The position numbers and the translations under genes are program-made. From Escherichia coli (GTDB lineage: Bacteria; Pseudomonadota; Gammaproteobacteria; Enterobacterales; Enterobacteriaceae): DNA of 64,000 nucleotides. The DNA is taken from the NCBI RefSeq assembly GCF_003019035.1, contig NZ_CP027447.1; one strand, 5' to 3'. This document shows positions 4,466 to 59,352 of this stretch, piece after piece. How positions within the stretch are numbered: position 1 is the stretch's first letter; each line of letters begins with the position of its first letter. The notes beneath the pieces are model-generated. The model made no database searches. It worked only from the letters and a program-made list of their open reading frames with translations, and was not told the DNA's origin.

Positions 4466-6412
4466 TCAGCAGCGGCTTAAATCAGCCTGCGCCTGAGCCA
4501 GTTTTTCTGCCGCCTGACGTAGCGGCTCCATCAACGGCATGGTCCGTGCTGGAGCATGAAGGCGGAATCGCTGCAACTCTGTCGCACCGACAGTCAACGC
4601 CGATTCCAGCCGATGTCGTTTGGCGGCCATTTTAGTCAGTACCGCTTGTCTGTCTGCTGGCGTTACCGCTTCATTCGGCCTGAACACAAAACGGCGTTCG
4701 CAACTCGCTTTCCAGTCGATAACCGCCTGTGTCAGATGATCACCAAACCCTTTCACTTGCTTAACGCCACGACGGGTAACATCTGCGGCGGTTTCAATAC
4801 CAAAAGACCGTAACGCCGCTTTACGCGCTGGGCCTACGCCGGGAATAGAGGCAGCATCGATAAAAAATCCCTCCAGAAACTTCTGCTTCTGCCGTTCCCT
4901 TGCGTTGTCCTGAAGTGCTGCCAGAGCGCGTTTCTCCTCTTCCGGTAACCCAAGAATTTCGTCCTTCATTTTTTCGAGCATCGTCCGTTTGGCTATAAAA
5001 CCTTCCTGCCCGCCCAACTGTTGGATCTGGCTGACTAAATGGTCATAGTCCATTTTCGCGCGATTAAACGCCTCACGGCGTTGCTGGATTTCTGCTTTGT
5101 ACGCTTTGCTTGTCAGGCTGCCAATAATCCAGATAGCCGACAGCACAGGAACCAAAATAATATAACGTGGTTCTGTCTGAAGGCCGCAAAGCAACAGCGA
5201 TAACGCTGACAGTGCGATCTCAATCAGAATGATGTATTCACGCCGTAACAGGCCTAAAGGAAGCGGCCTGCCAGTCGGTTGGAAATGATCGGGTAATGGC
5301 AGTTGCAATGCTGGCGGTGCTACTGACGCCATCACCATCGCCCAGACTTTCGCCAGCACAAAATCACCGCTGGTGGTAATGACCTCTTCGCCGAGATCAA
5401 TAAAATAGATAACGCCTTGATTATCCAGAGCACACCACGGGCAGTCAGCCAAATGACCGGGATAAACATGCATTGCCGAAACGGTACATTTCTTTAACTG
5501 TTGGCGTAGTAAATCAAGTGCCGCTACCCACGCTTTTGCCGTCGGACGCCCGGTTGCCACGCCACTTTCCGTGAATGCCTGCTGAAACATGGCTTCAACA
5601 TCGCCCGGTAACATCGACAGCGGAATAGATCGTGGCGGCGGTTTTAAACCACGTCGCTGATTATCTGACGCGTAGGCATAACGGAAATGGGCAATATCCG
5701 TCTCCAGTGCATTACCCGCATCAGAGACAAGCGGTACACCGGAATAAGGATGCCGCCCACCAAACAAGACGTGAAAAATCAGCAACGCAAGGCCAAAATT
5801 ATCGTGATTCGCGGTGCGTTCAAAGCCAACAAATGACGACAAGGTTTGCAGCTCTGGCGACGTAAAATGCGACACGCCCACTTCGCATAAATGCAGCGTT
5901 CCATTGGCGTTAATCTGAAAGGAGTCGCTATCAATCAACACCACTTTGCTGTCACGGCCTACCATAAAGCTGTTCTGGTTTACGTCACCCACGACGTGCC
6001 CGTGCTCGTGAACCGTAGCAAAAGATGAAGCAATATTGCGCGCAACATAGAGGAGAAAATCCCACGCACAATGAGGGTAACTCTGACGACGATGTGCCGG
6101 GCTATAGATCATATGAATCGGTTCTTTACCTGAAACCTTCGGCATCATAAAACCGATAACCTTTCCGCCTCGTCCACCGTGAAGCGTTGCCTGCGGCCAG
6201 GCGACATAATTCAACAACTGCGCGTCAGCTGTCGCAGCCATAAAGGCAAGTTTGTCCTGTTTTAAGGCGGGTGGCGGCGTGTGATAAATCTTGGCGACGC
6301 TATCGGCAAACTCCTCGATATCATAAACCGCACCTTCACCGCCTTTGCCCAGTTCACGGCCGAGAGTGGTCAATTCACCTGTCGATGTAAATACTTTTAT
6401 ATTTGTCTTCAT
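4466..6412 (-). CDS. yegI: Atypical Ser/Thr protein kinase-like protein YegI
   Basis: 648-aa ORF. N-terminus has a kinase-like Gly-rich loop (GKGGEGAVYDI), a catalytic-loop-like HGHVVGDVNQNSF and LIDSDS. The middle is hydrophobic and predicted membrane-spanning; the C-terminal domain follows. Confidence 0.85.
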   Translation of the reverse strand: MKTNIKVFTSTGELTTLGRELGKGGEGAVYDIEEFADSVAKIYHTPPPALKQDKLAFMAATADAQLLNYVAWPQATLHGGRGGKVIGFMMPKVSGKEPIHMIYSPAHRRQSYPHCAWDFLLYVARNIASSFATVHEHGHVVGDVNQNSFMVGRDSKVVLIDSDSFQINANGTLHLCEVGVSHFTSPELQTLSSFVGFERTANHDNFGLALLIFHVLFGGRHPYSGVPLVSDAGNALETDIAHFRYAYASDNQRRGLKPPPRSIPLSMLPGDVEAMFQQAFTESGVATGRPTAKAWVAALDLLRQQLKKCTVSAMHVYPGHLADCPWCALDNQGVIYFIDLGEEVITTSGDFVLAKVWAMVMASVAPPALQLPLPDHFQPTGRPLPLGLLRREYIILIEIALSALSLLLCGLQTEPRYIILVPVLSAIWIIGSLTSKAYKAEIQQRREAFNRAKMDYDHLVSQIQQLGGQEGFIAKRTMLEKMKDEILGLPEEEKRALAALQDNARERQKQKFLEGFFIDAASIPGVGPARKAALRSFGIETAADVTRRGVKQVKGFGDHLTQAVIDWKASCERRFVFRPNEAVTPADRQAVLTKMAAKRHRLESALTVGATELQRFRLHAPARTMPLMEPLRQAAEKLAQAQADLSRC

Positions 6413-6612
6413 AATGTTTCAAGGGCAGTCATATTATATTTCAATGAATAATAACACTTCCCATTATAATTATTTCTATATTGGAAGAGTCCAACTCAAG
6501 AATAAAAATGATAATGCAATTTCATCAGGATACAATTCAATTCCAACCTGATAATGATTCACTTCCACAGGTTTTTTGCTAACTTTTACTACACAGGGAT
6601 TCTGGAGAAAAA

Positions 6613-7074
6613 ATGAAAAAGATATTACTTATGTTGAGTCTGCTATTTTTTACTACCGCAAGCTATTGTGAGATTTCGGATACGTTAGTGACAGGAGGTT
6701 ATGATAAAAAGGCGATGTCTGACGCGATTAAACATGCGCGGAAAGAAACCGATCAATTCATCGAAGTTATGAATAAAAAAGATGCTGATACTTTCGCGGT
6801 CAAAGCCCCGATAACCGATCGCGGAGAAACCGAGCATTTCTGGCTCACGGATGTCACTTATTCTAACGGCATGTTTATTGGTATAATAAGCAATGACCCT
6901 GGTATTGTTACAAACGTAGAATATGGCCAGGAGTGGAAAATCAAGAAAGAAGATATTTCAGACTGGATGTATACGCGCGGGGATAAAATTTACGGTGGTT
7001 ATACCATTGATCCTTTATTGGTCACCTATCCAAAAGAAGAAGCCGACGAGCTAAGAGCAAAATTAGTTCGCTAG
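6613..7074 (+). CDS. yegJ: Secreted protein of unknown function YegJ
   Basis: 153-aa ORF with an N-terminal signal peptide (MKKILLMLSLLFFTTASYC). The gene and flanking spacers are visibly AT-rich; an AGGAG-like RBS lies upstream. Confidence 0.8.
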   Translation: MKKILLMLSLLFFTTASYCEISDTLVTGGYDKKAMSDAIKHARKETDQFIEVMNKKDADTFAVKAPITDRGETEHFWLTDVTYSNGMFIGIISNDPGIVTNVEYGQEWKIKKEDISDWMYTRGDKIYGGYTIDPLLVTYPKEEADELRAKLVR

Positions 7075-7101
7075 CCAGCCATTATATTGATTGCTTAAAC
7101 T

Positions 7102-7129
7102 GGCGGTTGAACCGTTGTATTCAACCGCC
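7102..7129. terminator. Bidirectional hairpin terminator between convergent yegJ and pphC
   Basis: Perfect 10-bp inverted repeat GGCGGTTGAA / TTCAACCGCC with an 8-nt loop, seen directly. Confidence 0.6.
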
Positions 7130-7138
7130 ATGCGATGT

Positions 7139-7900
7139 TCATTCTGTCCACATAGCCAGTGCTAACGTTTTATCATCATCGGTACGCTCGTTTACCGCTG
7201 GGCTGGACAAAAACTGCTTTAACAATTCAGGTAATAAATCGAGTTGTTCCTGCGTTGCTGACGCCAGTCCATTGAAAAACGGGGTAAAGAAAGGCACATG
7301 CGGAGAATTATCCAGCATATTTAACGCCAGTCTCTGAATACCATCCGTAAATGCTGCAACTCTATGCGCACGCTCAGTGCTGGTGAAAGTTTCCAGTCTG
7401 AAAACGGCATCTTCATCGGTAATGAAATGCGTCATGTTGGCATATTCACCCACCATCGGCGTGAGAGGCAATTGCAGACCGTGACCCAAATCTACCACCA
7501 CGCCGCCATCGCCAATCTGCATAATCAAGGTGCCGTCAGGCGATGAAATCAGTCCCAGAAATGTGCAGGCAAAATCGCGAACCGCTAATTCTTTGGCTTC
7601 CGCCTCGGCAAAAAGTCGCTGACGAACGGTCAGCACAATATCCGTTGCGAGGACATCATTAAGCCCCAATTCCCCGCCCTGCACTTTTTGCATCATATAA
7701 GCCATCGCTTCATTGACGGCAAGCGTCGCACCTTCGCCACCCTGCGAAACGCTGCCTGCGCCATCAGCGACAAATACCGTCAATAATGGCTGCTGGTCTT
7801 CTAGCCAGGCAACCTGCATCTGGCAGGCATCCTGGCAAGGCAAGTCCGCGCTGATGTGCGACGTTCCAACGGTTGATGCATAGACCAGACGCCAGCTCAC
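7139..7900 (-). CDS. pphC: PP2C-family Ser/Thr protein phosphatase PphC (YegK)
   Basis: 253-aa ORF. Start overlaps the yegL stop by 4 nt, indicating translational coupling. PP2C-like Asp/Gly-rich motifs ([16 protein letters not shown]). Confidence 0.85.
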
Positions 7901-8556: not shown

Positions 8557-8737
8557 AAGAAATCCTTTCTTAGAGAATTATTGAGGTCCGGTATCATACC
8601 GATTGCAATAATGAAATAAGAGCAAACGAAGAAACTTTCAGAATTAGGCCCGGCGGCGCAGAAAATTTTGCTATTCGCCTCGCAAGAACGGAGAGCCGTC
8701 GATTGACACTAAGGGCGGAGTGACATAATTTCAGGAG

Positions 8738-8886
8738 TGAGGGTTAGGGAGAGGTTTCCCCCTCCCCCTGGTGTTCTTAGTAAGCCTGGAAGCTAATCAC
8801 TAAGAGTATCACCAGTATGATGACGTGCTTCATCATAACCCTTTCCTTATTAAAAGCCCTCTTCTCCGGGAGAGGGTTTCCCGTTT
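8738..8886 (+). ncRNA. sibA: Sib antitoxin sRNA, unit 1 (SibA-like); ends approximate
   Basis: Sigma70-like promoter TTGACA(8703-8708)-N17-TAATTT(8726-8731); the transcript is fully antisense to ibs unit 1; hairpin at about 8856-8877 followed by TTTCCCGTTT. Confidence 0.65.
8777..8836 (-). CDS. ibsA: Ibs type I toxin, 19 aa (MMKHVIILVILLVISFQAY)
   Basis: Hand translation of the minus strand; it is a hydrophobic peptide that matches my memory of IbsA. Confidence 0.8.
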   Translation of the reverse strand: MMKHVIILVILLVISFQAY

Positions 8887-9072
8887 CAGCGTCCCGCTGA
8901 AATCGTCGGCTTACCTCCTTTCGCCCTGAATGCAGTCTATCGCTAACGCGTGAACAAAATAGTTTCCTCTGTGATTATTCCGTAACGACTCGCAAAGAAT
9001 ATTTGCTGGCAGGATCGCAGACTACAAAGCCTGCGGATTGACAATCTTATCGTGAAGGCATAATTTCAGGAG

Positions 9073-9216
9073 TGAGGGTAGAGCGGGGTTTCCCCCGCCC
9101 TGGTAGTCTTAGTAAGCGGGGAAGCTTATGACTAAGAGCACCACGATGATGAGTATCTTCATCATGACCCTTTCCTTATTTATGGCCCCTTCCTCGGGAG
9201 GGGCTTTCCCGTTTCA
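9073..9216 (+). ncRNA. sibB: Sib antitoxin sRNA, unit 2 (SibB-like); ends approximate
   Basis: Promoter TTGACA-N17-TAATTT(9061-9066), antisense to ibs unit 2, GC hairpin at about 9184-9204 plus T-rich tail. Confidence 0.65.
9109..9165 (-). CDS. ibsB: Ibs type I toxin, 18 aa (MMKILIIVVLLVISFPAY)
   Basis: Hand translation of the minus strand; IbsB-like. Confidence 0.75.
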   Translation of the reverse strand: MMKILIIVVLLVISFPAY

Positions 9217-9400
9217 GCGTCCCGCTGAAATCGTCGGCTTACCTCCTTCTGTCCTGTATGCAGTCTATCGCTGACTTGCGGATAAAATAGTTTCCAATGT
9301 GATTATTGCGTAACGTCTCGCAAAGAATATTTGCTGGCAGGATCGCAGACTGCAAAGCCTGCAGATTGACAATATTATCGTGAAGGCATACTTTCAGGAG

Positions 9401-9543
9401 TGAGGGTAGAGCGGGGTTTCCCCCGCCCTGGTAGTCTTAGTAAGCCGGGAAGCTTATGACTAAGAGCACCACGATGATGATCCACTTCATCATGACCCTT
9501 TCCTTATTTAAGGCCCCTTCCTCGGGAGGGGCTTTCCCGTTTC
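9401..9543 (+). ncRNA. Sib antitoxin sRNA, unit 3 (additional copy); ends approximate
   Basis: Promoter TTGACA-N17-TACTTT(9389-9394), antisense to ibs unit 3, GC hairpin at about 9512-9532 plus T-rich tail. Confidence 0.6.
9437..9493 (-). CDS. Ibs type I toxin, 18 aa (MMKWIIIVVLLVISFPAY), third copy
   Basis: Hand translation of the minus strand; IbsB-like variant with W at position 4. Confidence 0.7.
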   Translation of the reverse strand: MMKWIIIVVLLVISFPAY

Positions 9544-21266: not shown

Positions 21267-21519
21267 TTACGATGCCGGGCGTGGGTTGTTGGCGTCCGGC
21301 TTTATATCAAAACAACTCTTAGTTATTGATAATTAAGATTAACCTCCGCCATTAAAATAGTGGGCACTGACGAGCACTCGTTGTGCTTTCTTTGTTTACC
21401 ATCCCATACTTATCTTCCTGAACATGTTCATATGCCAAAATATCTTCTAATACTTTCGTGACGCTATCCGGTTTATGAAATACACTGATGTAAGATTTTT
21501 ACTTACAGGCGGGTGTAAA

Positions 21520-21771
21520 ATGGCCAGAACGATGACGGTTGATCTCGGCGATGAGTTGCGTGAATTTATCGAGTCCTTAATTGAATCCGGCGACTATCGC
21601 ACCCAAAGCGAAGTGATCCGTGAGTCGCTGCGCTTACTTCGAGAAAAGCAAGCAGAGTCTCGCCTGCAAGCGTTACGTGACATGCTCGCTGAAGGGTTGA
21701 GTAGTGGTGAAGCTCAGCCGTGGGAAAAGGACGCGTTTTTACGGAAGGTGAAAGCAGGGATAAGGAAATAA
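21520..21771 (+). CDS. ParD-family (RHH) type II antitoxin
   Basis: 83 aa from the ATG at 21520 (MARTMTVDLGDELREFIESLIESGDYRTQSEVIRESLRLL), a typical ParD N-terminus. An alternative start exists at 21475. Stop lies 1 nt before the partner gene start. Confidence 0.75.
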   Translation: MARTMTVDLGDELREFIESLIESGDYRTQSEVIRESLRLLREKQAESRLQALRDMLAEGLSSGEAQPWEKDAFLRKVKAGIRK

Positions 21772-21772
21772 T

Positions 21773-22069
21773 GTGCGTACTATAAAACTCATGCCAAAAG
21801 CCAATGAGGATTTAGAAGGCATCTGGTATTACAGCTATCACCATTTCGGCGAACCACAAGCCGACAGATATGTGGAACATCTTTCAGACGTTCTCCAGAT
21901 TCTGAGTAACAATAATATAGGTACGCCCAGACCTGAATTAGGCGAAGGTATTTTTGTTCTTCCTTTTGAACGCCACGTAATTTATTTCCTGCAATCACCA
22001 GAGGAAATTATCGTCATTCGTATCCTTAACCAAAACCAGTACGCCTCCAGACATTTACACTGGAGCTAA
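21773..22069 (+). CDS. ParE/RelE-fold type II toxin
   Basis: 98 aa from the GTG at 21773 (alternative ATG at 21791). The N-terminus (KANEDLEGIWYYSYHHFGEPQADRY) and C-terminus (HVIYFLQSPEEIIVIRILNQNQ) follow the ParE pattern. Confidence 0.75.
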   Translation: MRTIKLMPKANEDLEGIWYYSYHHFGEPQADRYVEHLSDVLQILSNNNIGTPRPELGEGIFVLPFERHVIYFLQSPEEIIVIRILNQNQYASRHLHWS

Positions 22070-22171
22070 ACCCGCCGATTGCGCTACAATGCCCGCCCTT
22101 AAAGTGGGGGCACTCCCCTAACCGCTTCATCAGGTGAAGCGGATCTGACCTGTCATCAGAACGAGAGAATT

Positions 22172-23533: not shown

Positions 23534-23617
23534 TTCATTTCGATTATTTTTCCCGGATGGAAAATTCTTAGAAACCGATCACATACAGCTGCATTTATTA
23601 AGGTTATCATCCGTTTC

Positions 23618-23704
23618 GCTGAAAAACATAACCCATAAAATGCTAGCTGTACCAGGAACCACCTCCTTAGCCTGTGTAATCTCCCTTACACGGGCTTATT
23701 TTTT
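23618..23704 (+). ncRNA. cyaR: CyaR (RyeE) Hfq-dependent sRNA
   Basis: Sequence GCTGAAAAACATAACCCATAAAATGCTAGCTGTACCAGGAACCACCTCCTTAGCCTGTGTAATCTCCCTTACACGGGCTTATTTTTT matches CyaR as I remember it, including the terminator hairpin and U-tail. Confidence 0.85.
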
Positions 23705-23861
23705 ATACATAAGCCGTATCCTGGTAACCGTCTTCCATTGACCACATCGATAGAATCTCCCCTCATAGCACGATGCCTTTCACTTATTGGCATCGTGCTC
23801 GCACAGGTTCCGGTTACGCACAGCCAGAACGCGCATGTTTGACGCTTACCAAAAAATATTC

Positions 23862-24593: not shown

Positions 24594-25493
24594 ATGGCAG
24601 AATTTCCCGCCAGCTTACTGATTCTTAATGGCAAAAGTACTGACAATCTACCCCTGCGCGAAGCAATTATGCTGTTGCGTGAGGAAGGAATGACGATCCA
24701 TGTGCGGGTCACCTGGGAGAAAGGCGATGCCGCACGATATGTAGAGGAGGCCCGGAAGTTGGGCGTCGCAACGGTGATTGCCGGTGGTGGCGATGGCACC
24801 ATTAATGAAGTTTCTACGGCGTTGATTCAGTGTGAGGGGGATGACATACCCGCGCTGGGAATTTTGCCATTAGGAACCGCCAATGATTTTGCCACCAGTG
24901 TAGGGATTCCTGAGGCACTGGATAAGGCGCTGAAACTGGCAATTGCCGGTAACGCCATTGCGATAGATATAGCGCAGGTCAACAAACAAACCTGTTTTAT
25001 TAATATGGCGACAGGCGGATTTGGGACGCGTATTACCACAGAAACGCCGGAAAAATTAAAAGCCGCGCTGGGTGGCGTCTCTTACATCATTCATGGCTTA
25101 ATGCGCATGGATACTCTGCAACCGGACCGTTGTGAAATCCGCGGTGAAAACTTTCACTGGCAAGGTGACGCCCTGGTCATTGGTATTGGTAACGGGCGTC
25201 AGGCTGGTGGCGGTCAGCAATTGTGCCCGAACGCGTTAATTAACGATGGCTTGCTGCAACTGCGCATTTTTACCGGCGATGAAATTCTTCCGGCTCTCGT
25301 ATCAACCTTAAAATCTGACGAAGATAACCCGAATATTATCGAAGGCGCTTCGTCGTGGTTTGATATACAAGCCCCACACGAAATCACTTTTAATCTTGAT
25401 GGCGAACCGTTGAGTGGGCAAAACTTCCATATTGAAATACTTCCGGCGGCGTTGCGTTGTCGATTACCACCAGATTGTCCATTATTGCGTTAA
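24594..25493 (+). CDS. yegS: Lipid kinase YegS (DAG-kinase catalytic-domain family)
   Basis: 299-aa ORF with the GGDGT motif ([12 protein letters not shown]). Confidence 0.9.
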
Positions 25494-25530
25494 TCAAACT
25501 ATTCTCTGTTGAACCAGGGAGAATCCGTAA

Positions 25531-25566
25531 TGCCGGATGCGGTGTAAACACCTTATCCGGCATACA
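25531..25566 (+). repeat. REP element
   Basis: TGCCGGATGCGGTGTAAACACCTTATCCGGCATAC, between convergent yegS and gatR. Confidence 0.75.
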
Positions 25567-25574
25567 GAACAATA

Positions 25575-26354
25575 CTACACCGTAATTAATTTTACCCGTG
25601 TCTTCTGCAATGCCAGTTTATCCACCTCAGACACAGCATCATCGGTAATAATAATGTCAATTTTTTCGATTGGCAGTACCTGATTAAAACCGCGACGATT
25701 AAATTTCGATGAATCGAGAACGGCAATCACTTTATTTGCGGCTGTGACCATCGCCCCGCTAATCGAATAGCCTTCATTAAAGGTCGTAATACCATTAACC
25801 GCATCAATACCATCAGCACCGACAAACATTAAATCGGCATTAATATCCTGCAATGAACGCTCAGCAATGGAGCCATGCATCGAGCGCGTTTTATGGCGGA
25901 CCGTGCCACCGCAGACGACCAGAGTAATGTCTTTATTTTCGGAAAGGGCAAATGCTGCCGGGAGACTGTTGGTAATCACCGTGATATTTTTGGCGGTCAT
26001 TAATCCTTCGGCGATAAGCATTGTCGTACTTCCGCTGTCGAGAATAACGGTCATCCCTTCGTGGATCATTTTGACTGCCGCCTGCGCTATTCTGTTTTTT
26101 GGCGCGCTGGCGAGCTGAAATCGCTCTTTAAACCCGACTTCCTGGGTCTCGGTTTCACTATTACCGGACATTATTTTCGCCGCACCGCCATGAAAGCGCG
26201 TAACCACGCCTTTTTGTTCGAGAAAGCGCAAATCGGCACGGATTGTCGCTTCCGAGGCAGCAAATACTCCCGCCAGATCCTGAACAAGCACGGTTCCCTG
26301 TTCATTCACTAATTGGATGATCTTATTCCTTCGCTCGAATGAATTCATCGTCAT
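25575..26354 (-). CDS. gatR: DeoR-family repressor of the galactitol operon GatR (uninterrupted)
   Basis: 259-aa continuous ORF with an N-terminal HTH (IIQLVNEQGTVLVQDLAGVFAASEATIRADLRFLE) and a DeoR C-terminal sugar-phosphate-binding domain. Confidence 0.85.
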   Translation of the reverse strand: MTMNSFERRNKIIQLVNEQGTVLVQDLAGVFAASEATIRADLRFLEQKGVVTRFHGGAAKIMSGNSETETQEVGFKERFQLASAPKNRIAQAAVKMIHEGMTVILDSGSTTMLIAEGLMTAKNITVITNSLPAAFALSENKDITLVVCGGTVRHKTRSMHGSIAERSLQDINADLMFVGADGIDAVNGITTFNEGYSISGAMVTAANKVIAVLDSSKFNRRGFNQVLPIEKIDIIITDDAVSEVDKLALQKTRVKLITV

Positions 26355-26453
26355 TTACCCATATTCAATTGTGGCTAGTGTAAACGAAGGGGGACCATTG
26401 GTGAATGATCTGTTTTGCACAATACCGGGCCAGCATCACGCTGGCCCGCGGTT

Positions 26454-27494
26454 TCAGGGAATGAGCAACACTTTGCCCGGCATAGCATTACGAGCGATGT
26501 CACGCACCGCCTGGGCGAAGCTTTCAAAGCTTCCACGGTGAGCGATTAATGGCTCCAGGCTTAACTTACGTTCTGTCAGCAACCGGCTCGCCGTTTCCCA
26601 CTCCTGCCCCGGCCAAGGGCTGGAGTAGTTCATCCAACTGCCAATCACCGTCAGCTCTTTACGCAATATTTTGCCAAACGTTGCCGATGTTAAATGCAGA
26701 TCCTGATGCAACGTGCCCACCAGCGCCAGTTGGGCATGAGGACCGGCAATCTCTACCGCCAGTTCGACGGTTTGCGGGACGCCAGCCGTCTCGAGGATAA
26801 GCTGATTAAAGCGCAGCTCGCGTAAAACGCCCTGTATTTGCGGCGCGCTCATTTCACGGCTGTTAAATGTTTGCATCGCACCGAAAGATTTTGCCAGTGC
26901 CAGTTTTTCTGAGCTAATGTCGATAGCCGTCACACTCTTTGCTCCCAGCGCGACAGCGCACTGAATTGCCAGCAGGCCAATGGTTCCGGCACCAATAATA
27001 ATAACGTTTTTATTCTCACATCCTTGCGCTAAATGGAACGCATGCAGGCCAACGGTAATCGGTTCAATAAAAGCGCCATCCTCAATAGGCATATCCGCAG
27101 GTAGTGCAAAGACATTGTTTCGCTTAACGACAATATATTCGGCAAATCCACCATCACGCCGTGAGCCAATAAAATCATATTTTGCGCACTGGGAATAAAA
27201 CCCTTTCAGACACTCTGGACAAGTAAAACAGGGTAATAACGGCACACAGGCAACCGCATCGCCGGGATGTAAATCATCAATACCGGATCCCACCGCATCA
27301 ATATAGCCGCTAAATTCATGGCCTAACGTTATTGGATAATAATGTGCACCATTTTTAAATATCCTGGGTAAATCGGAACCACATAAGCCCGAGCTGGCAA
27401 TTTTTACCCGCACCTCATCCTGATGTTTAATTTCAGGAATGACGCTTTCTGCTACGCGCACGATACCATCAGTATCATTCACCACTGATTTCAT
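26454..27494 (-). CDS. gatD: Galactitol-1-phosphate 5-dehydrogenase
   Basis: 346-aa Zn-dependent medium-chain dehydrogenase with a GAGTIGL Rossmann motif. Confidence 0.9.
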   Translation of the reverse strand: MKSVVNDTDGIVRVAESVIPEIKHQDEVRVKIASSGLCGSDLPRIFKNGAHYYPITLGHEFSGYIDAVGSGIDDLHPGDAVACVPLLPCFTCPECLKGFYSQCAKYDFIGSRRDGGFAEYIVVKRNNVFALPADMPIEDGAFIEPITVGLHAFHLAQGCENKNVIIIGAGTIGLLAIQCAVALGAKSVTAIDISSEKLALAKSFGAMQTFNSREMSAPQIQGVLRELRFNQLILETAGVPQTVELAVEIAGPHAQLALVGTLHQDLHLTSATFGKILRKELTVIGSWMNYSSPWPGQEWETASRLLTERKLSLEPLIAHRGSFESFAQAVRDIARNAMPGKVLLIP

Positions 27495-27540
27495 AAAAAC
27501 TCCTGATTGTTAAGGGGATAACCTCCCCCTCAGGTAAAAA

Positions 27541-28896
27541 TTATTCTGCGAGAACGGCTTTCTCTTGTTTAATAAAACCACGCGCTCTACGCCAGGTCAT
27601 GAAAATACCGGTCAGATAAATTGCGCCGATAATAATGAAACCGGGAATATTTTGCGGGGAGAAAACCTGAATCAGTAACCAGGTAATGGGAGAACCGCCC
27701 TGATCCATTGAAGCCACCATACCCCCGGCTTTTAACGCGCCCGCATTAGCCGCCAGTTGGGTGTGCAAACCAATAGTTTGCGTCGCGATCCACAGGGTGA
27801 TGCTCATAATGATGACACCCGAGATTAAGGTGCGGAACAGATTTCCACGATGCACCGCGACCGCCATCGCCACAAAGAAGCCGATGGTGGCAAGGTCGCC
27901 AAACGGCAGCACCTGATTACCCGGCACACAAACAGCAATTAAAATGGTGAGCGGGATAAAAATCAGGCTTGCCGATACCACCGCCGTATGCCCCAGCAGT
28001 AATGCGGGATCCAGGCCAATCAGGAACTCCTGACCGCCGAACTTCGCCTGTAAACGACTACGGGCCTGCTTAGCGATGGGCGTTAAACCATCCATGATGG
28101 GTTTAATCACCCGTGGCATCAGCAGCATAACCGCCGCCGTTTTTACCGCCAGCTGCAATACACCTTTGACATCGTAACCCGCGAGGATGCCGATAATCAG
28201 CCCCATCACAAAACCCACGGTGACAGGCTCGCCAAACGGACCAAATTTGCGCTGAATATCGTCGGCACTAAATTTAATTCGGTTAACGCCTGGGATTTTC
28301 TCGATGATAGCATCCACCAGCACCGCAATTGGCCCCATATACGCCGACGTACCGTGCGGGATGGCAATGCCTTCCAGCTCAAAGAAATTTCGGGTATCGC
28401 GGGCAAACCAGTCGCCGAGCTTATAAACAAACGCCGCGTGAATTACCACACCCGCCATCCCTATCATCCATGAACCGGTTGCCAGATGCAGCAACGCGCC
28501 GGTGAAGGTCATATGCCAGATATTCCAGATATCAACATTTACCACCCGCGTCATACGGGTCAGTAACATCGCCACGTTAACCAGAATCGCAATCGGAATC
28601 GCCACCAGCGCAATTTGCGACGCCCAGGTCATGGGTGAAGAGCCCGGCCAGCCGACATCGACCACATGCAGATTCAGGTCGAAATTTTCCGCCATCGCTT
28701 TCGCCGCCGGACCAATGGAATCCAGCATTAAGCCAATCACAAGGCCAATGCCAACAAAGCCAATCCCGATATGCAGACCCGCTTTAAAGCAATCGCCTGC
28801 CTTCATGCCTAATATTTTAGAAAAAATAATGATGACAATCGGCAGCATCACCGTAGGGCCGAGGTCGAGAATATAACGCATGACTTCTGAAAACAT
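27541..28896 (-). CDS. gatC: PTS galactitol-specific EIIC
   Basis: 451-aa polytopic membrane protein in gat operon context. Confidence 0.9.
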   Translation of the reverse strand: MFSEVMRYILDLGPTVMLPIVIIIFSKILGMKAGDCFKAGLHIGIGFVGIGLVIGLMLDSIGPAAKAMAENFDLNLHVVDVGWPGSSPMTWASQIALVAIPIAILVNVAMLLTRMTRVVNVDIWNIWHMTFTGALLHLATGSWMIGMAGVVIHAAFVYKLGDWFARDTRNFFELEGIAIPHGTSAYMGPIAVLVDAIIEKIPGVNRIKFSADDIQRKFGPFGEPVTVGFVMGLIIGILAGYDVKGVLQLAVKTAAVMLLMPRVIKPIMDGLTPIAKQARSRLQAKFGGQEFLIGLDPALLLGHTAVVSASLIFIPLTILIAVCVPGNQVLPFGDLATIGFFVAMAVAVHRGNLFRTLISGVIIMSITLWIATQTIGLHTQLAANAGALKAGGMVASMDQGGSPITWLLIQVFSPQNIPGFIIIGAIYLTGIFMTWRRARGFIKQEKAVLAE

Positions 28897-28899
28897 AGG

Positions 28900-29184
28900 T
28901 CACCCCTGTAAGATAGTCAGAATTTTATTTTGTAATGCTTCGATACCGACACCAGAAACAAAAGGCATGCCGTGAACTAACGGAATATCGCCAAAACTAC
29001 GATCCACCCTGGCCGTGGTGCATATCAAATGCACGCCATCCATATAGGTTTCTATTTCATTAACCCGACACTGGATTAATTCAACAGGAATATTATGACT
29101 CTGACACAACTCTTTAATTTCTTCCGCCGCCATCGTGGAGGTCGCAACCGCGCCTCCGCAAGCGACAATAATCTTGCGTTTCAT
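28900..29184 (-). CDS. gatB: PTS galactitol-specific EIIB
   Basis: 94-aa ORF with a Cys-containing N-terminus ([12 protein letters not shown]). Confidence 0.9.
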
Positions 29185-29214
29185 AAACAGTCCTTTTTAT
29201 TGTTACAGAGGGAT

Positions 29215-29667
29215 TTATTCGTCTGAATCTAAAACATACTTTGTGAAGTATTCCTTTAACTGAGTTTCAGGAAGAGTAATTAGTGTCTCGACGATATCGG
29301 GCTGTTGTAACTTGCCAAATAAACAGCGTAAAAGTTTCAATTGCTGCTGCGGATTTTCCACAATCAACGCAATAACCAACGATACCGCCACGTCGTTATC
29401 ATCATCCGCTTGCTGAAAATGAACTTTATTTGTTGGCCTTAACAGATAAATGGCTGACGACTTAGCATGAATCGCCTCACAATGCGGTATTGCAATGGCG
29501 TGCTGCTCAAGCATTATCCCGGTAGGGAATTCTGCTTCTCTGGCAATTAATGCCTGTGGCCAGGTATCATGAACCACACCTTTCGCGAGCATCTCATTAC
29601 CGATATGGGCTAAAACTTCGCTACGATCGACAAAAGAAATTCCGCTACGAACAAACAGGTTAGTCAT
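29215..29667 (-). CDS. gatA: PTS galactitol-specific EIIA
   Basis: 150-aa ORF in operon context. Confidence 0.9.
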   Translation of the reverse strand: MTNLFVRSGISFVDRSEVLAHIGNEMLAKGVVHDTWPQALIAREAEFPTGIMLEQHAIAIPHCEAIHAKSSAIYLLRPTNKVHFQQADDDNDVAVSLVIALIVENPQQQLKLLRCLFGKLQQPDIVETLITLPETQLKEYFTKYVLDSDE

Positions 29668-29676
29668 ATACCGTCC

Positions 29677-31876
<2,200 letters not shown>

Positions 31877-31936
31877 TCAAATGTCGAGATAACGATCACA
31901 AAAACGACAATGTGAAAATTAATCAGAATTACAGGC

Positions 31937-31966
31937 AAAAAAAACGGCCTCCCGTTAGGGAAGCCG
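31937..31966 (-). terminator. Rho-independent terminator downstream of fbaB
   Basis: Minus strand reads hairpin CGGCTTCCC-loop-GGGAGGCCG followed by a run of 8 T. Confidence 0.6.
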
Positions 31967-31987
31967 TAGCAAAGTGCGCGTGTTTTT

Positions 31988-32025
31988 ATGCCGGATGCAA
32001 CGTAAACGCCTTATCCGCCCTACGG
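31988..32025 (+). repeat. REP element
   Basis: ATGCCGGATGCAACGTAAACGCCTTATCCGCCCTACGG. Confidence 0.7.
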
Positions 32026-51044: not shown

Positions 51045-54000
51045 ATGAGACACTTTATCTATCAGGACGAAAAATCACATAAATTCTGGGCGGTGGAGCA
51101 GCAGGGAAACGAGTTGCATATCTGTTGGGGAAAAGTTGGCACCAAAGGGCAAAACCAAGTAAAAAGTTTTGCGGATGCTGCGGCAGCGGCAAAAGCGGAG
51201 CTTAAGCTGATCGCGGAGAAGGTGAAGAAGGGATATGTGGAGCAAGCGAAGGATAATTCTTTGCAACCTTCCCAAACGGTAACGGACTCTCTCAAGGTAG
51301 CGGACTTATCCACCATTATTCAGGAACAACCCTCTTTCGTAGCAGAAACCCGTGCGGCTGACAAAAATACAGATGCTGTTTTACCGTGGCTGGCAAAAGA
51401 TATTGCTGTCGTTTTTCCGCTTGAAGTCGTACCCACCACCTTAAGCCATCGCCGCTTTCCCGGAGATCCTGTTACACCTGTAGATAAATTAACCCAGTTA
51501 CGTCGCTTAGCCTGTGGCGTGTCGCAACGGGATAACAAAACAGCTACATTTGACTTCAGCGCCTGTACTTTAGAGTGGCAAAACTTCATCGCTCAGGCGA
51601 TCGATCTGATTAACAGCCCGAAAACGACAAAATTACCATCACCGGTAATGGCTGTACTCGCGGCACTTGAACTGCACTGCACGAGATATAAAGAGCGTGA
51701 GGATGTTATGGATCAGATTATTCAGGAAGGCGGTCTGGAATATGCTACTGATGTAATAATACATCTTCAACAAATATCTATTGAATGGGATTATGTCAAC
51801 AATAATATTGTTTTCCTGTCGTCTGGCATTTCACCTGATTACTTGCAGCAATATTCCAGCTTTGAATTACGCCTACGTAAACATTTATCACTGGCGGAAG
51901 AGTCTCTCTGGCAAAAATGTGCACAAAAACTTATTGCCGCAGTTCCACATATTCCAGAATGGCGGCAACCATTAATTGCTTTGTTATTACCCGAAAAACC
52001 AGAAATTGCACATGAAATTGCCCAGCGTCTACTGGGGCAAAAGAAATTACCCTCGCTTGAGTGGCTAAAAATAGTGGCGACTGATGAGCACATTCTTGCC
52101 TCATTAGAAAAATATCACGAGCCATATGCCATTTTTGATGATTACTATTGTGGTGCGATATGGTCAGCCACCGTATTACAGGAGCAAGGTGTTGCAGCCC
52201 TGCCCCGATTTGCACCCTATGTCGCAAGTGACTACTGCGCCGATGTGTTGAGTCATATCAATCATCCGTTCGCATTAACACTGCTTATACGTGTAGCCGG
52301 GCATACTAAACGCTGTCACGATCGAATGACGAAAGCCTGCGCTGCGTTCCCACACGCAGCACTGGCAGCACTGGCGGAACTTCTAGTGCAAAAAGAAGAG
52401 AATAGTTGGCGCATTATGCTAATGACGATGCTTATCTCGCAACCTACACTAGCAGAACAGGTCATTCCCTGGCTTTCGACACCCGCAGTTGCAGTGCTGA
52501 AATCATGCCAGCAACAACTGAAACAGCCCTCAAACCATGCCAGTGCCGATCTACTGCCGGCCATAGTAGTCTCCCCACCATGGCTTTCGAAAAAGAAAAA
52601 ATCGCCGATTCCGGTGCTTGATTTAGCACCGCTCAACCTCGAATCCATATGCACAATAACCGACACAGAAGCTAAAGAGTTTCAAACTCATTGGGACTGG
52701 GAACCGCATAAGCCAGGTGAAGGTGCTAAAGATTTCCTTTACTCGCTGGGGTATCGCCGCTGGGATTTTGACACATATAAATATATCGGCGCTTCTGACT
52801 CGGCAATTGACGCATGGGAACGTGAGGACTTCGCTACACTCATCCAAATGTTTAAAGCCCACCATGCACCGTATCAGGGGGAGTGGCATCTCAACTCACT
52901 TCCCTTTTTACCTATGCAAAAAGCGATTAAACTATGGGAATTTCTCAGCAAAGAGCCGCATACCGCGGTAAAACCTGTCATGCTTTATTTGCGACTGGCA
53001 GGTATGAGTGGTTTTCTACACTCGTTTTCACGCTACCCTCAAGAAGGTTTTGCGGTTGCTAATTATTTTGCCGCAACGGAACTGGCTCCTGCCGTCGCCC
53101 GCGCCTTTAACAAACTCAAAACTCTACGACAAGACGCCCGCACCTGGCTGCTGAAATATCCGGAACATGCCATTACCGGCCTGTTGCCTGCGGCACTCGG
53201 CAAAGCCGGTGAATCCCAGGATAACGCCCGTGCCGCTTTACGTATGTTGATTGAAAATGGTTATCCGTCATTACTGCAAGAAATCGCCCAGCGTTATAAC
53301 CAGCCGGAAGTAACCGATGCGGTGAACGCTCTACTTGCGCTCGATCCCTTAGATAATCACCCGACTAAAATCCCGACACTTCCGGCCTTTTATCAGCCAT
53401 CGCTCTGGACGCGCCCGGTATTAAAAGCAAACGCCCAATCACTGCCAGATAGCGCCCTCTTCCACCTCGGTGAAATGCTCCGCTTCCCTCAGGAAGATAC
53501 GCTGTATCCGGGGTTATTACAGGTGAAAGACGCCTGTACTGCCGACTCACTGGCTGAGTTTGCCTGGGATCTGTTTACCGCCTGGCAGACCGCTGGCGTG
53601 CCGTCGAAAGAGAGCTGGGCGTTCACTGCATTAGGTGTTCTTGGCAACGATGACACCGCCCGCAAACTGACGCCATTAATCCGCGCCTGGCCTGGCGAAT
53701 CTCAGCATAAACGTGCCACCGTTGGGTTGGATATTCTCGCTGCTATCGGCAGCGATATCGCCCTGATGCAGCTTAACGGCATCGCCCAGAAACTGAAATT
53801 CAAAGCCTTACAGGAGCGGGCGAAAGAAAAAATTGCCGACATTGCCGAAAGTCGCGAACTCACAGTGGCAGAACTTGAAGATCGGTTAGCACCGGATCTC
53901 GGTCTGGATGATAACGGTTCGCTGCTGCTGGATTTCGGGCCACGGCAGTTCACCGTCAGCTTTGATGAAACCTTAAAACCGTTTGTGCGTGATGCTTCCG

Positions 54001-54833
54001 GCAGCCGCCTGAAAGACTTGCCTAAACCGAACAAAAGCGATGATGAAACCCAAGCGAACGATGCAGTTAACCGCTACAAACTGTTGAAAAAAGATGCGCG
54101 TACCGTTGCCGCCCAGCAGGTAGCAAGGCTGGAATCCGCCATGTGCCTGCGCCGCCGCTGGTCGCCGGAAAACTTTCAGCTCTTCCTGGTTGAGCATCCG
54201 CTGGTTCGCCACTTAACCCGCCGTCTGATTTGGGGCGTTTATAGCACCGAAAACGAGCTACTGGCTTGCTTTCGCGTGGCGGAAGATAACAGCTACAGCA
54301 CCGCAGACGATGATCTTTTCACCCTGCCGGAAGGCGATATCTCTGTTGGCATTCCTCACGTTCTGGAAATATCACCCACGGATGCTGCCGCCTTTGGTCA
54401 ACTTTTTGCCGACTACGAACTGCTACCGCCGTTCCGCCAGCTCGACCGTAACAGTTACGCCCTGACAGAAGCCGAGCGCAACGCCAGCGAACTGACCCGC
54501 TGGGCAGGCAGAAAATGCCCGAGCGGTCGGGTAATGGGGCTGGCGAATAAAGGCTGGATAAAGGGCACCCCGCAGGATGGAGGCTGGATCGGCTGGATGA
54601 TCAAACCTCTCGGTCGCTGGTCGTTAATCATGGAAATCAATGAAGGATTTGCAGTTGGTATGTCGCCAGCCGAACTCAGTGCCGAGCAACTCTTAAGTAA
54701 GCTGTGGCTATGGGAAGGCAAAGCGGAAAGCTATGGCTGGGGGAGCAATTCAACACAGGAAGCGCAGTTCTCCGTACTCGATGCCATCACCGCCAGCGAG
54801 CTAATTAACGATATTGAAGCCCTTTTTGAATAA
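51045..54833 (+). CDS. yehH: Large WGR-like N-terminal domain protein YehH (MolR-like), intact
   Basis: 1262-aa uninterrupted ORF. N-terminus FIYQDEKSHKFWAVEQQGNELHICWGKVG looks like a WGR domain. It shares long collinear blocks with the downstream paralog. Confidence 0.85.
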   Translation: MRHFIYQDEKSHKFWAVEQQGNELHICWGKVGTKGQNQVKSFADAAAAAKAELKLIAEKVKKGYVEQAKDNSLQPSQTVTDSLKVADLSTIIQEQPSFVAETRAADKNTDAVLPWLAKDIAVVFPLEVVPTTLSHRRFPGDPVTPVDKLTQLRRLACGVSQRDNKTATFDFSACTLEWQNFIAQAIDLINSPKTTKLPSPVMAVLAALELHCTRYKEREDVMDQIIQEGGLEYATDVIIHLQQISIEWDYVNNNIVFLSSGISPDYLQQYSSFELRLRKHLSLAEESLWQKCAQKLIAAVPHIPEWRQPLIALLLPEKPEIAHEIAQRLLGQKKLPSLEWLKIVATDEHILASLEKYHEPYAIFDDYYCGAIWSATVLQEQGVAALPRFAPYVASDYCADVLSHINHPFALTLLIRVAGHTKRCHDRMTKACAAFPHAALAALAELLVQKEENSWRIMLMTMLISQPTLAEQVIPWLSTPAVAVLKSCQQQLKQPSNHASADLLPAIVVSPPWLSKKKKSPIPVLDLAPLNLESICTITDTEAKEFQTHWDWEPHKPGEGAKDFLYSLGYRRWDFDTYKYIGASDSAIDAWEREDFATLIQMFKAHHAPYQGEWHLNSLPFLPMQKAIKLWEFLSKEPHTAVKPVMLYLRLAGMSGFLHSFSRYPQEGFAVANYFAATELAPAVARAFNKLKTLRQDARTWLLKYPEHAITGLLPAALGKAGESQDNARAALRMLIENGYPSLLQEIAQRYNQPEVTDAVNALLALDPLDNHPTKIPTLPAFYQPSLWTRPVLKANAQSLPDSALFHLGEMLRFPQEDTLYPGLLQVKDACTADSLAEFAWDLFTAWQTAGVPSKESWAFTALGVLGNDDTARKLTPLIRAWPGESQHKRATVGLDILAAIGSDIALMQLNGIAQKLKFKALQERAKEKIADIAESRELTVAELEDRLAPDLGLDDNGSLLLDFGPRQFTVSFDETLKPFVRDASGSRLKDLPKPNKSDDETQANDAVNRYKLLKKDARTVAAQQVARLESAMCLRRRWSPENFQLFLVEHPLVRHLTRRLIWGVYSTENELLACFRVAEDNSYSTADDDLFTLPEGDISVGIPHVLEISPTDAAAFGQLFADYELLPPFRQLDRNSYALTEAERNASELTRWAGRKCPSGRVMGLANKGWIKGTPQDGGWIGWMIKPLGRWSLIMEINEGFAVGMSPAELSAEQLLSKLWLWEGKAESYGWGSNSTQEAQFSVLDAITASELINDIEALFE

Positions 54834-59268: not shown

Positions 59269-59352
59269 GTTGGAACACGATGTTGCACAGGCCGTGGTGT
59301 TAGGCCTGAAAGTAGTAAATAAAAGAACCTGCCTCACCAGCAGGTTTTTTTA
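59269..59352 (+). ncRNA. Putative ~80-nt trans-acting antitoxin-like sRNA
   Basis: Predicted 5' end GTTGGAACACGATGTTGCAC; internal stem-loop CAGGCC-N9-GGCCTG at 59288-59308; AU-rich linker; terminator ACCTGC-ctcacca-GCAGGT plus a run of 7 T (59327-59352). Confidence 0.5.

Follow-up and report, generated by a model that had tools for sequence, protein, structure and literature searches.

An uninterrupted gatR gene in the gat locus of a non-K-12 Escherichia coli

In Escherichia coli, GatR is the repressor of the gatYZABCD operon (Nobelmann and Lengeler, 1996, as cited in PMC9189660), and the gat genes of MG1655 are expressed constitutively or over-expressed owing to a disrupted gatR (PMC3045373, PMC4072538, PMC10878103, PMC5850726, PMC3446290, PMC9189660). 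The question raised by the present locus is whether gatR is intact in the window, i.e., the whole 64-kb stretch of E. coli DNA analysed here, and what its state implies for galactitol utilization and for the origin of the strain. Our answer, to which we assign a probability of about 90%, is that the open reading frame (ORF) following gatD is an intact wild-type gatR allele, encoding the DeoR-family galactitol operon repressor, in a non-K-12 E. coli that matches the human commensal SCU-301 exactly at this locus.

A continuous 259-residue DeoR-family ORF with no insertion had been claimed in the preliminary description of this DNA, and both the ORF listing and the Pfam search confirmed it, the coding strand being the minus strand. 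The gene, its domains and the adjacent structural genes are as follows.

25575..26354, minus strand: gatR coding sequence; the longest ORF encodes 259 residues with an ATG start and no internal stop (ORF listing).
25575-25577, minus strand: stop codon of gatR.
26175..26333, minus strand: DeoR-type helix-turn-helix (HTH), the N-terminal DNA-binding domain; residues 8-60 of the 259-residue ORF, PF08220 (HTH_DeoR), E-value 1.3e-16, 60.5 bits against a cutoff of 21.
25641..26102, minus strand: DeoRC, the C-terminal sensor/oligomerisation domain and presumed effector-binding part; residues 85-238, PF00455, E-value 2.5e-51.
26454..31822, minus strand: gatYZABCD structural genes, every one of them full length.

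The gatR product is a member of the DeoR/GlpR family in which both the HTH and the DeoRC domain are present. The PF00455 match extends over profile positions 5-159 of 160 with a score of 174.2 bits (cutoff 31.8), and the only sequence match among solved structures was the DeoR C-terminal domain 7l6l (E-value 1.9e-11). Public annotation gives the protein at two lengths, 259 and 257 residues. The shorter form begins at the second ATG (26348), two codons downstream of the first, as in RefSeq WP_001295426.1 (774 nt) and the MG1655 annotation of b4498. Because a Shine-Dalgarno-like GGGT motif is placed 8 nt from the second ATG and only 2 nt from the first, the second start is favoured.

gatR closes a complete gatYZABCD-gatR cluster and lies between gatD and yegS, in the same gene order as in MG1655. 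The encoded structural proteins have lengths of 346 (GatD), 451 (GatC), 94 (GatB), 150 (GatA), 420 (GatZ) and 284 residues (GatY, annotated start), and GatD matched the NCBIfam equivalog of galactitol-1-phosphate 5-dehydrogenase with 726 bits (cutoff 550). On the other side of gatR, yegS (an NCBIfam lipid kinase equivalog) is convergent with it, and 81 bp separate the two stop codons. This gap contains a REP-like palindrome, GCCGGATGCGGTGTAAACACCTTATCCGGC, at 25532-25561, and a simple scan found no canonical terminator in it.

Sequence identity, the location beside gatYZABCD and yegS, and the uninterrupted frame identify the protein as the orthologue of E. coli GatR (b4498 in MG1655; intact in HS, NCM3722 and REL606-type strains), to which it is identical at 257 of 257 residues and whose position after gatD it shares. 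The annotations of MCJCHV-1, SCU-301, K-12 NCM3722 and E. coli HS all contain WP_001295426.1, and translation confirmed the identity. At least 1000 contigs of a large protein collection carry the exact sequence, for which one source gives the name "DeoR family galactitol utilization operon repressor". NCBIfam holds no GatR-specific model, and the family name is based on identity and synteny, without a curated equivalog. The NCBIfam models that scored highest for the ORF were those of AgaR (232.9 bits) and SrlR (226.3 bits), as would be seen if it were another DeoR-family paralogue, AgaR- or SrlR-like, instead of GatR; both scores fall under the curated cutoffs (260 and 350, respectively), while its sequence matches the product of K-12 gatR at 100% identity and its position is inside the gat cluster. 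We therefore ruled out an AgaR or SrlR identity, which has only a very remote chance of being correct. AgaR and SrlR (GutR), the repressors of the N-acetylgalactosamine and glucitol PTS operons, have the same two-domain architecture, align with GatR over the full length and follow a common logic as repressors of a PTS sugar or polyol operon. GatR is thus a paralogue of both that falls outside their families by the equivalog cutoffs.

That an insertion sequence disrupts gatR in K-12 had been stated in the preliminary description, and the MG1655 genome (NC_000913.3) bears this out: b4498 is annotated there as a pseudogene in two pieces, separated by IS3E (insE5/insF5, 1258 bp) after nucleotide 299 of 774, and the papers cited above tie constitutive gat expression to the disruption. 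The element is called IS1 in one passage of PMC5850726, while the genome annotation gives IS3E. The junctions carry a GTC target-site duplication, and comparison with them located the corresponding single-copy site in the window.

26050..26052, strand not assigned: GTC target triplet of IS3E, present once and unoccupied.

The triplet falls at Met/Thr codons near residue 99-100 (257-residue numbering), at the beginning of the sensor domain, and what remains in MG1655 is consequently no more than an N-terminal fragment of about 99 residues with the HTH. The gene and the locus are shared by MG1655 and the window, whereas IS3E and the GTC duplication are confined to MG1655. The MG1655 gene was reconstituted by joining the 299- and 475-nt fragments into 774 nt, with IS3E and one GTC copy removed, and was aligned with gatR of the window. 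The two genes differ at 14 of 774 nucleotides, all of them synonymous (0 non-synonymous), which is also the distance of the K-12/HS allele, and the proteins are identical at all 257 positions. Inactivating substitutions in the HTH are accordingly excluded, since none were found. gatC is also intact in the window (27541-28896, 451 residues) and is annotated as a pseudogene in MG1655, so the gat locus of MG1655 carries two lesions rather than one.

From the intact gatR, the preliminary description had concluded that the window does not come from K-12. The conclusion stood, with 96.2% identity to K-12 NCM3722 over 47.9 kb, but the reasoning did not: NCM3722 is a K-12 strain in which both gatR and gatC are intact, as reported in its genome paper (PMC3045373), and an intact gatR is therefore insufficient by itself to exclude K-12. 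The same strain would be the model for an alternative in which the window belongs to a K-12 lineage never hit by IS3E, as its uninterrupted gatR encodes the same protein. We regard this alternative as extremely improbable, because the window is 99.996% identical to SCU-301 (NZ_CP051751.1) over 24 kb, as against 96.2% to NCM3722, from which gatR alone differs at 14 synonymous positions, and because it lacks the P2 remnant genes ogrK and yegZ and contains a parDE insert that is missing from K-12. SCU-301 is a human commensal from a rectal swab of a healthy student. Identity to HS was 96.4% over 40.7 kb. gatR of MCJCHV-1 is 100% identical to that of the window, with flanks of just 93-98% identity.

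The frequency of the intact gene was surveyed in 5,426 complete E. coli genomes by megablast with gatR and with an 83-bp probe that spans the gatR/IS3E junction of MG1655. Expressed as megablast coverage classes of gatR, the gene was detected in 5,109 of the 5,426 genomes, and at least 80% of it was found in one place in 4,756 (about 88%). The junction probe gave a full match in 344 of the genomes (about 6%). The junction matches listed are laboratory strains, namely ER1709, a strain described as "Laboratory developed" and a conjugation-assay strain. Some E. coli B derivatives have another insertion in gatR, which is IS1 in C2566. An intact gatR is thus the norm of the species, and the state seen in MG1655 is a lesion specific to its lineage. 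The combination of gatR::IS3E with the gatC frameshift, as a laboratory-lineage lesion in about 6% of complete genomes, is usable as a strain marker.

Regulated galactitol catabolism is very likely in the window strain, as judged from its sequence, because its GatR protein is identical to that of HS and gatYZABCD are all full length. The HS allele has been validated functionally: when it replaced the MG1655 pseudogene, the operon was regulated again (Sousa et al., PMC5850726). In mice, no gat-negative mutants arose from MG1655 carrying HS gatR, and constitutive mutants evolved through de novo IS insertions in gatR (PMC5850726). This test combined the HS protein with the K-12 gatY promoter, which is a different promoter allele from that of the window. 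In a CRISPRi preprint of 2026, silencing of gatR strongly affected the fitness of both LF82 and CFT073 and gave no fitness signal in MG1655, the latter being attributed to IS3E (bioRxiv 10.64898/2026.01.05.697630). The change in the fitness of LF82 and CFT073 points to an active repressor in natural isolates.

By analogy with the DeoR family, the HTH of GatR would bind operators in the gatY promoter when galactitol is absent and block transcription of gatYZABCD. Galactitol imported and phosphorylated by the GatABC PTS would give rise to a phosphorylated pathway intermediate, whose binding to the DeoRC domain would then release GatR from the DNA. Judging from other DeoR-family repressors, candidate inducers are galactitol-1-phosphate or a tagatose phosphate. 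Three elements of this scheme are inferred, namely that GatR represses the operon in the window strain, where its operators lie and which compound is the inducer. In the view of PMC7972205, the gat promoters of Salmonella respond to both galactitol and tagatose, with which a tagatose phosphate as the inducer would fit. GatR of Salmonella Typhimurium is, like E. coli GatR, a DeoR-type repressor of gat promoters, although it belongs to another genus, and its repression was lost upon removal of the HTH (PMC7972205).

Two noncoding regions are relevant to this regulation.

26355..26453, minus strand: gatD-gatR intergenic region, identical to K-12 in the alignment.
31823..31943, minus strand: gatY promoter/operator region, with sigma-70-like hexamers at 31853-31887.

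The promoter of gatR itself is presumed to lie in the gatD-gatR intergenic region. Directly after gatD, at 26427-26447, this region contains the GC-rich hairpin GGGCCAGC-ATCAC-GCTGGCCC. A consensus scan of 26355..26453 found no promoter or terminator match. Scanning of 25450-26500 revealed no terminator-like site, and promoter-like matches within gatR did not exceed the shuffle expectation.

In the gatY promoter region, the direct repeat GAAAACAAA occurs at 31838-31846 and 31870-31878, 32 bp apart. These are the only two copies in the 64-kb window, a number that is not above chance (2 versus 1.0 expected). We therefore propose only as a hypothesis that the repeats may be GatR operator half-sites; no mapped GatR operator turned up in the literature that could be searched. 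Within approximately 100 bp proximal to gatY, four positions differ from K-12 and HS, and one of these substitutions is inside a candidate operator repeat (TGAAAACAAAT versus TAAAAACAAAT). These differences might be taken to mean that regulation is altered despite the intact gatR, i.e., that the operon is partly constitutive or poorly inducible, either through the divergent gatY promoter/operator allele or for want of natural de-repression. We consider this unlikely. The promoter allele is a natural variant, as it is common to 109 of about 4,900 records from complete genomes at 99% identity or more, and MCJCHV-1 has three of the four variants. Moreover, the window has two perfect GAAAACAAA copies, with one copy being imperfect in K-12, and the repressor protein is identical to the validated allele. 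There is a slimmer chance still that this minority promoter allele could set a different threshold of repression or induction by galactitol in the window lineage, a suggestion drawn from the promoter sequence. If so, the difference would be a natural regulatory polymorphism bearing on competition for galactitol in the gut. In the adjacent fbaB-gatY intergenic region (about 31970-31990), K-12 and HS have 78 extra bp of REP-like palindromic sequence, and the window and MCJCHV-1 are without it. This insert is upstream of the fbaB terminator (31944-31967) and outside the gatY promoter.

The gat locus of the window is of the ancestral and very probably regulated form, and the consequence is small beyond annotation. 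Earlier publications cover the K-12 lesion, its effect on phenotype and what this exact GatR protein does, and gatR of the window is real but ordinary. The gat phenotypes of MG1655, namely constitutive expression and the selection of gat-negative mutants in the mouse gut, are not directly transferable to natural isolates.

Several other features of the window were recorded. The CyaR small RNA is present at 23616-23705, and the adjoining P2-derived cryptic prophage remnant PR-X of K-12 (ogrK, yegZ) is absent. Two stretches of approximately 780 bp that were unmatched relative to MCJCHV-1 or K-12 (6361-7148 and 21300-22081) were considered, on account of their size, as IS1 copies and rejected on gene content. 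The former is yegJ, a gene that K-12 and HS also have. The latter, an insert of 781 bp, lies between yegP and yegQ/trhP and contains two plus-strand ORFs (21475-21771 and 21773-22069), encoding a ParD antitoxin (PF03693, E-value 7e-19) and a ParE toxin (PF05016, E-value 2e-13). This parDE insert is missing at the site in MG1655, NCM3722, HS and MCJCHV-1 and is annotated in SCU-301.

Antitoxin RNAs were also found. Three SIB antitoxin RNAs are arranged in tandem between yegL and mdtA, at 8703-8851, 9038-9180 and 9366-9508 (Rfam RF00113, 141-150 bits), a locus at which only two Ibs toxins are annotated in HS and MCJCHV-1. An OrzO-P type I antitoxin RNA lies at 59276-59351 between yehI and yehL (RF02083, 98.9 bits), in a region that aligns poorly with K-12, where yehK is located. 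Finally, positions 51045-54833 contain an intact DUF4132-type ORF of 1262 residues, and the gene at the matching position in NCM3722 is annotated as a pseudogene that has a frameshift and an internal stop.
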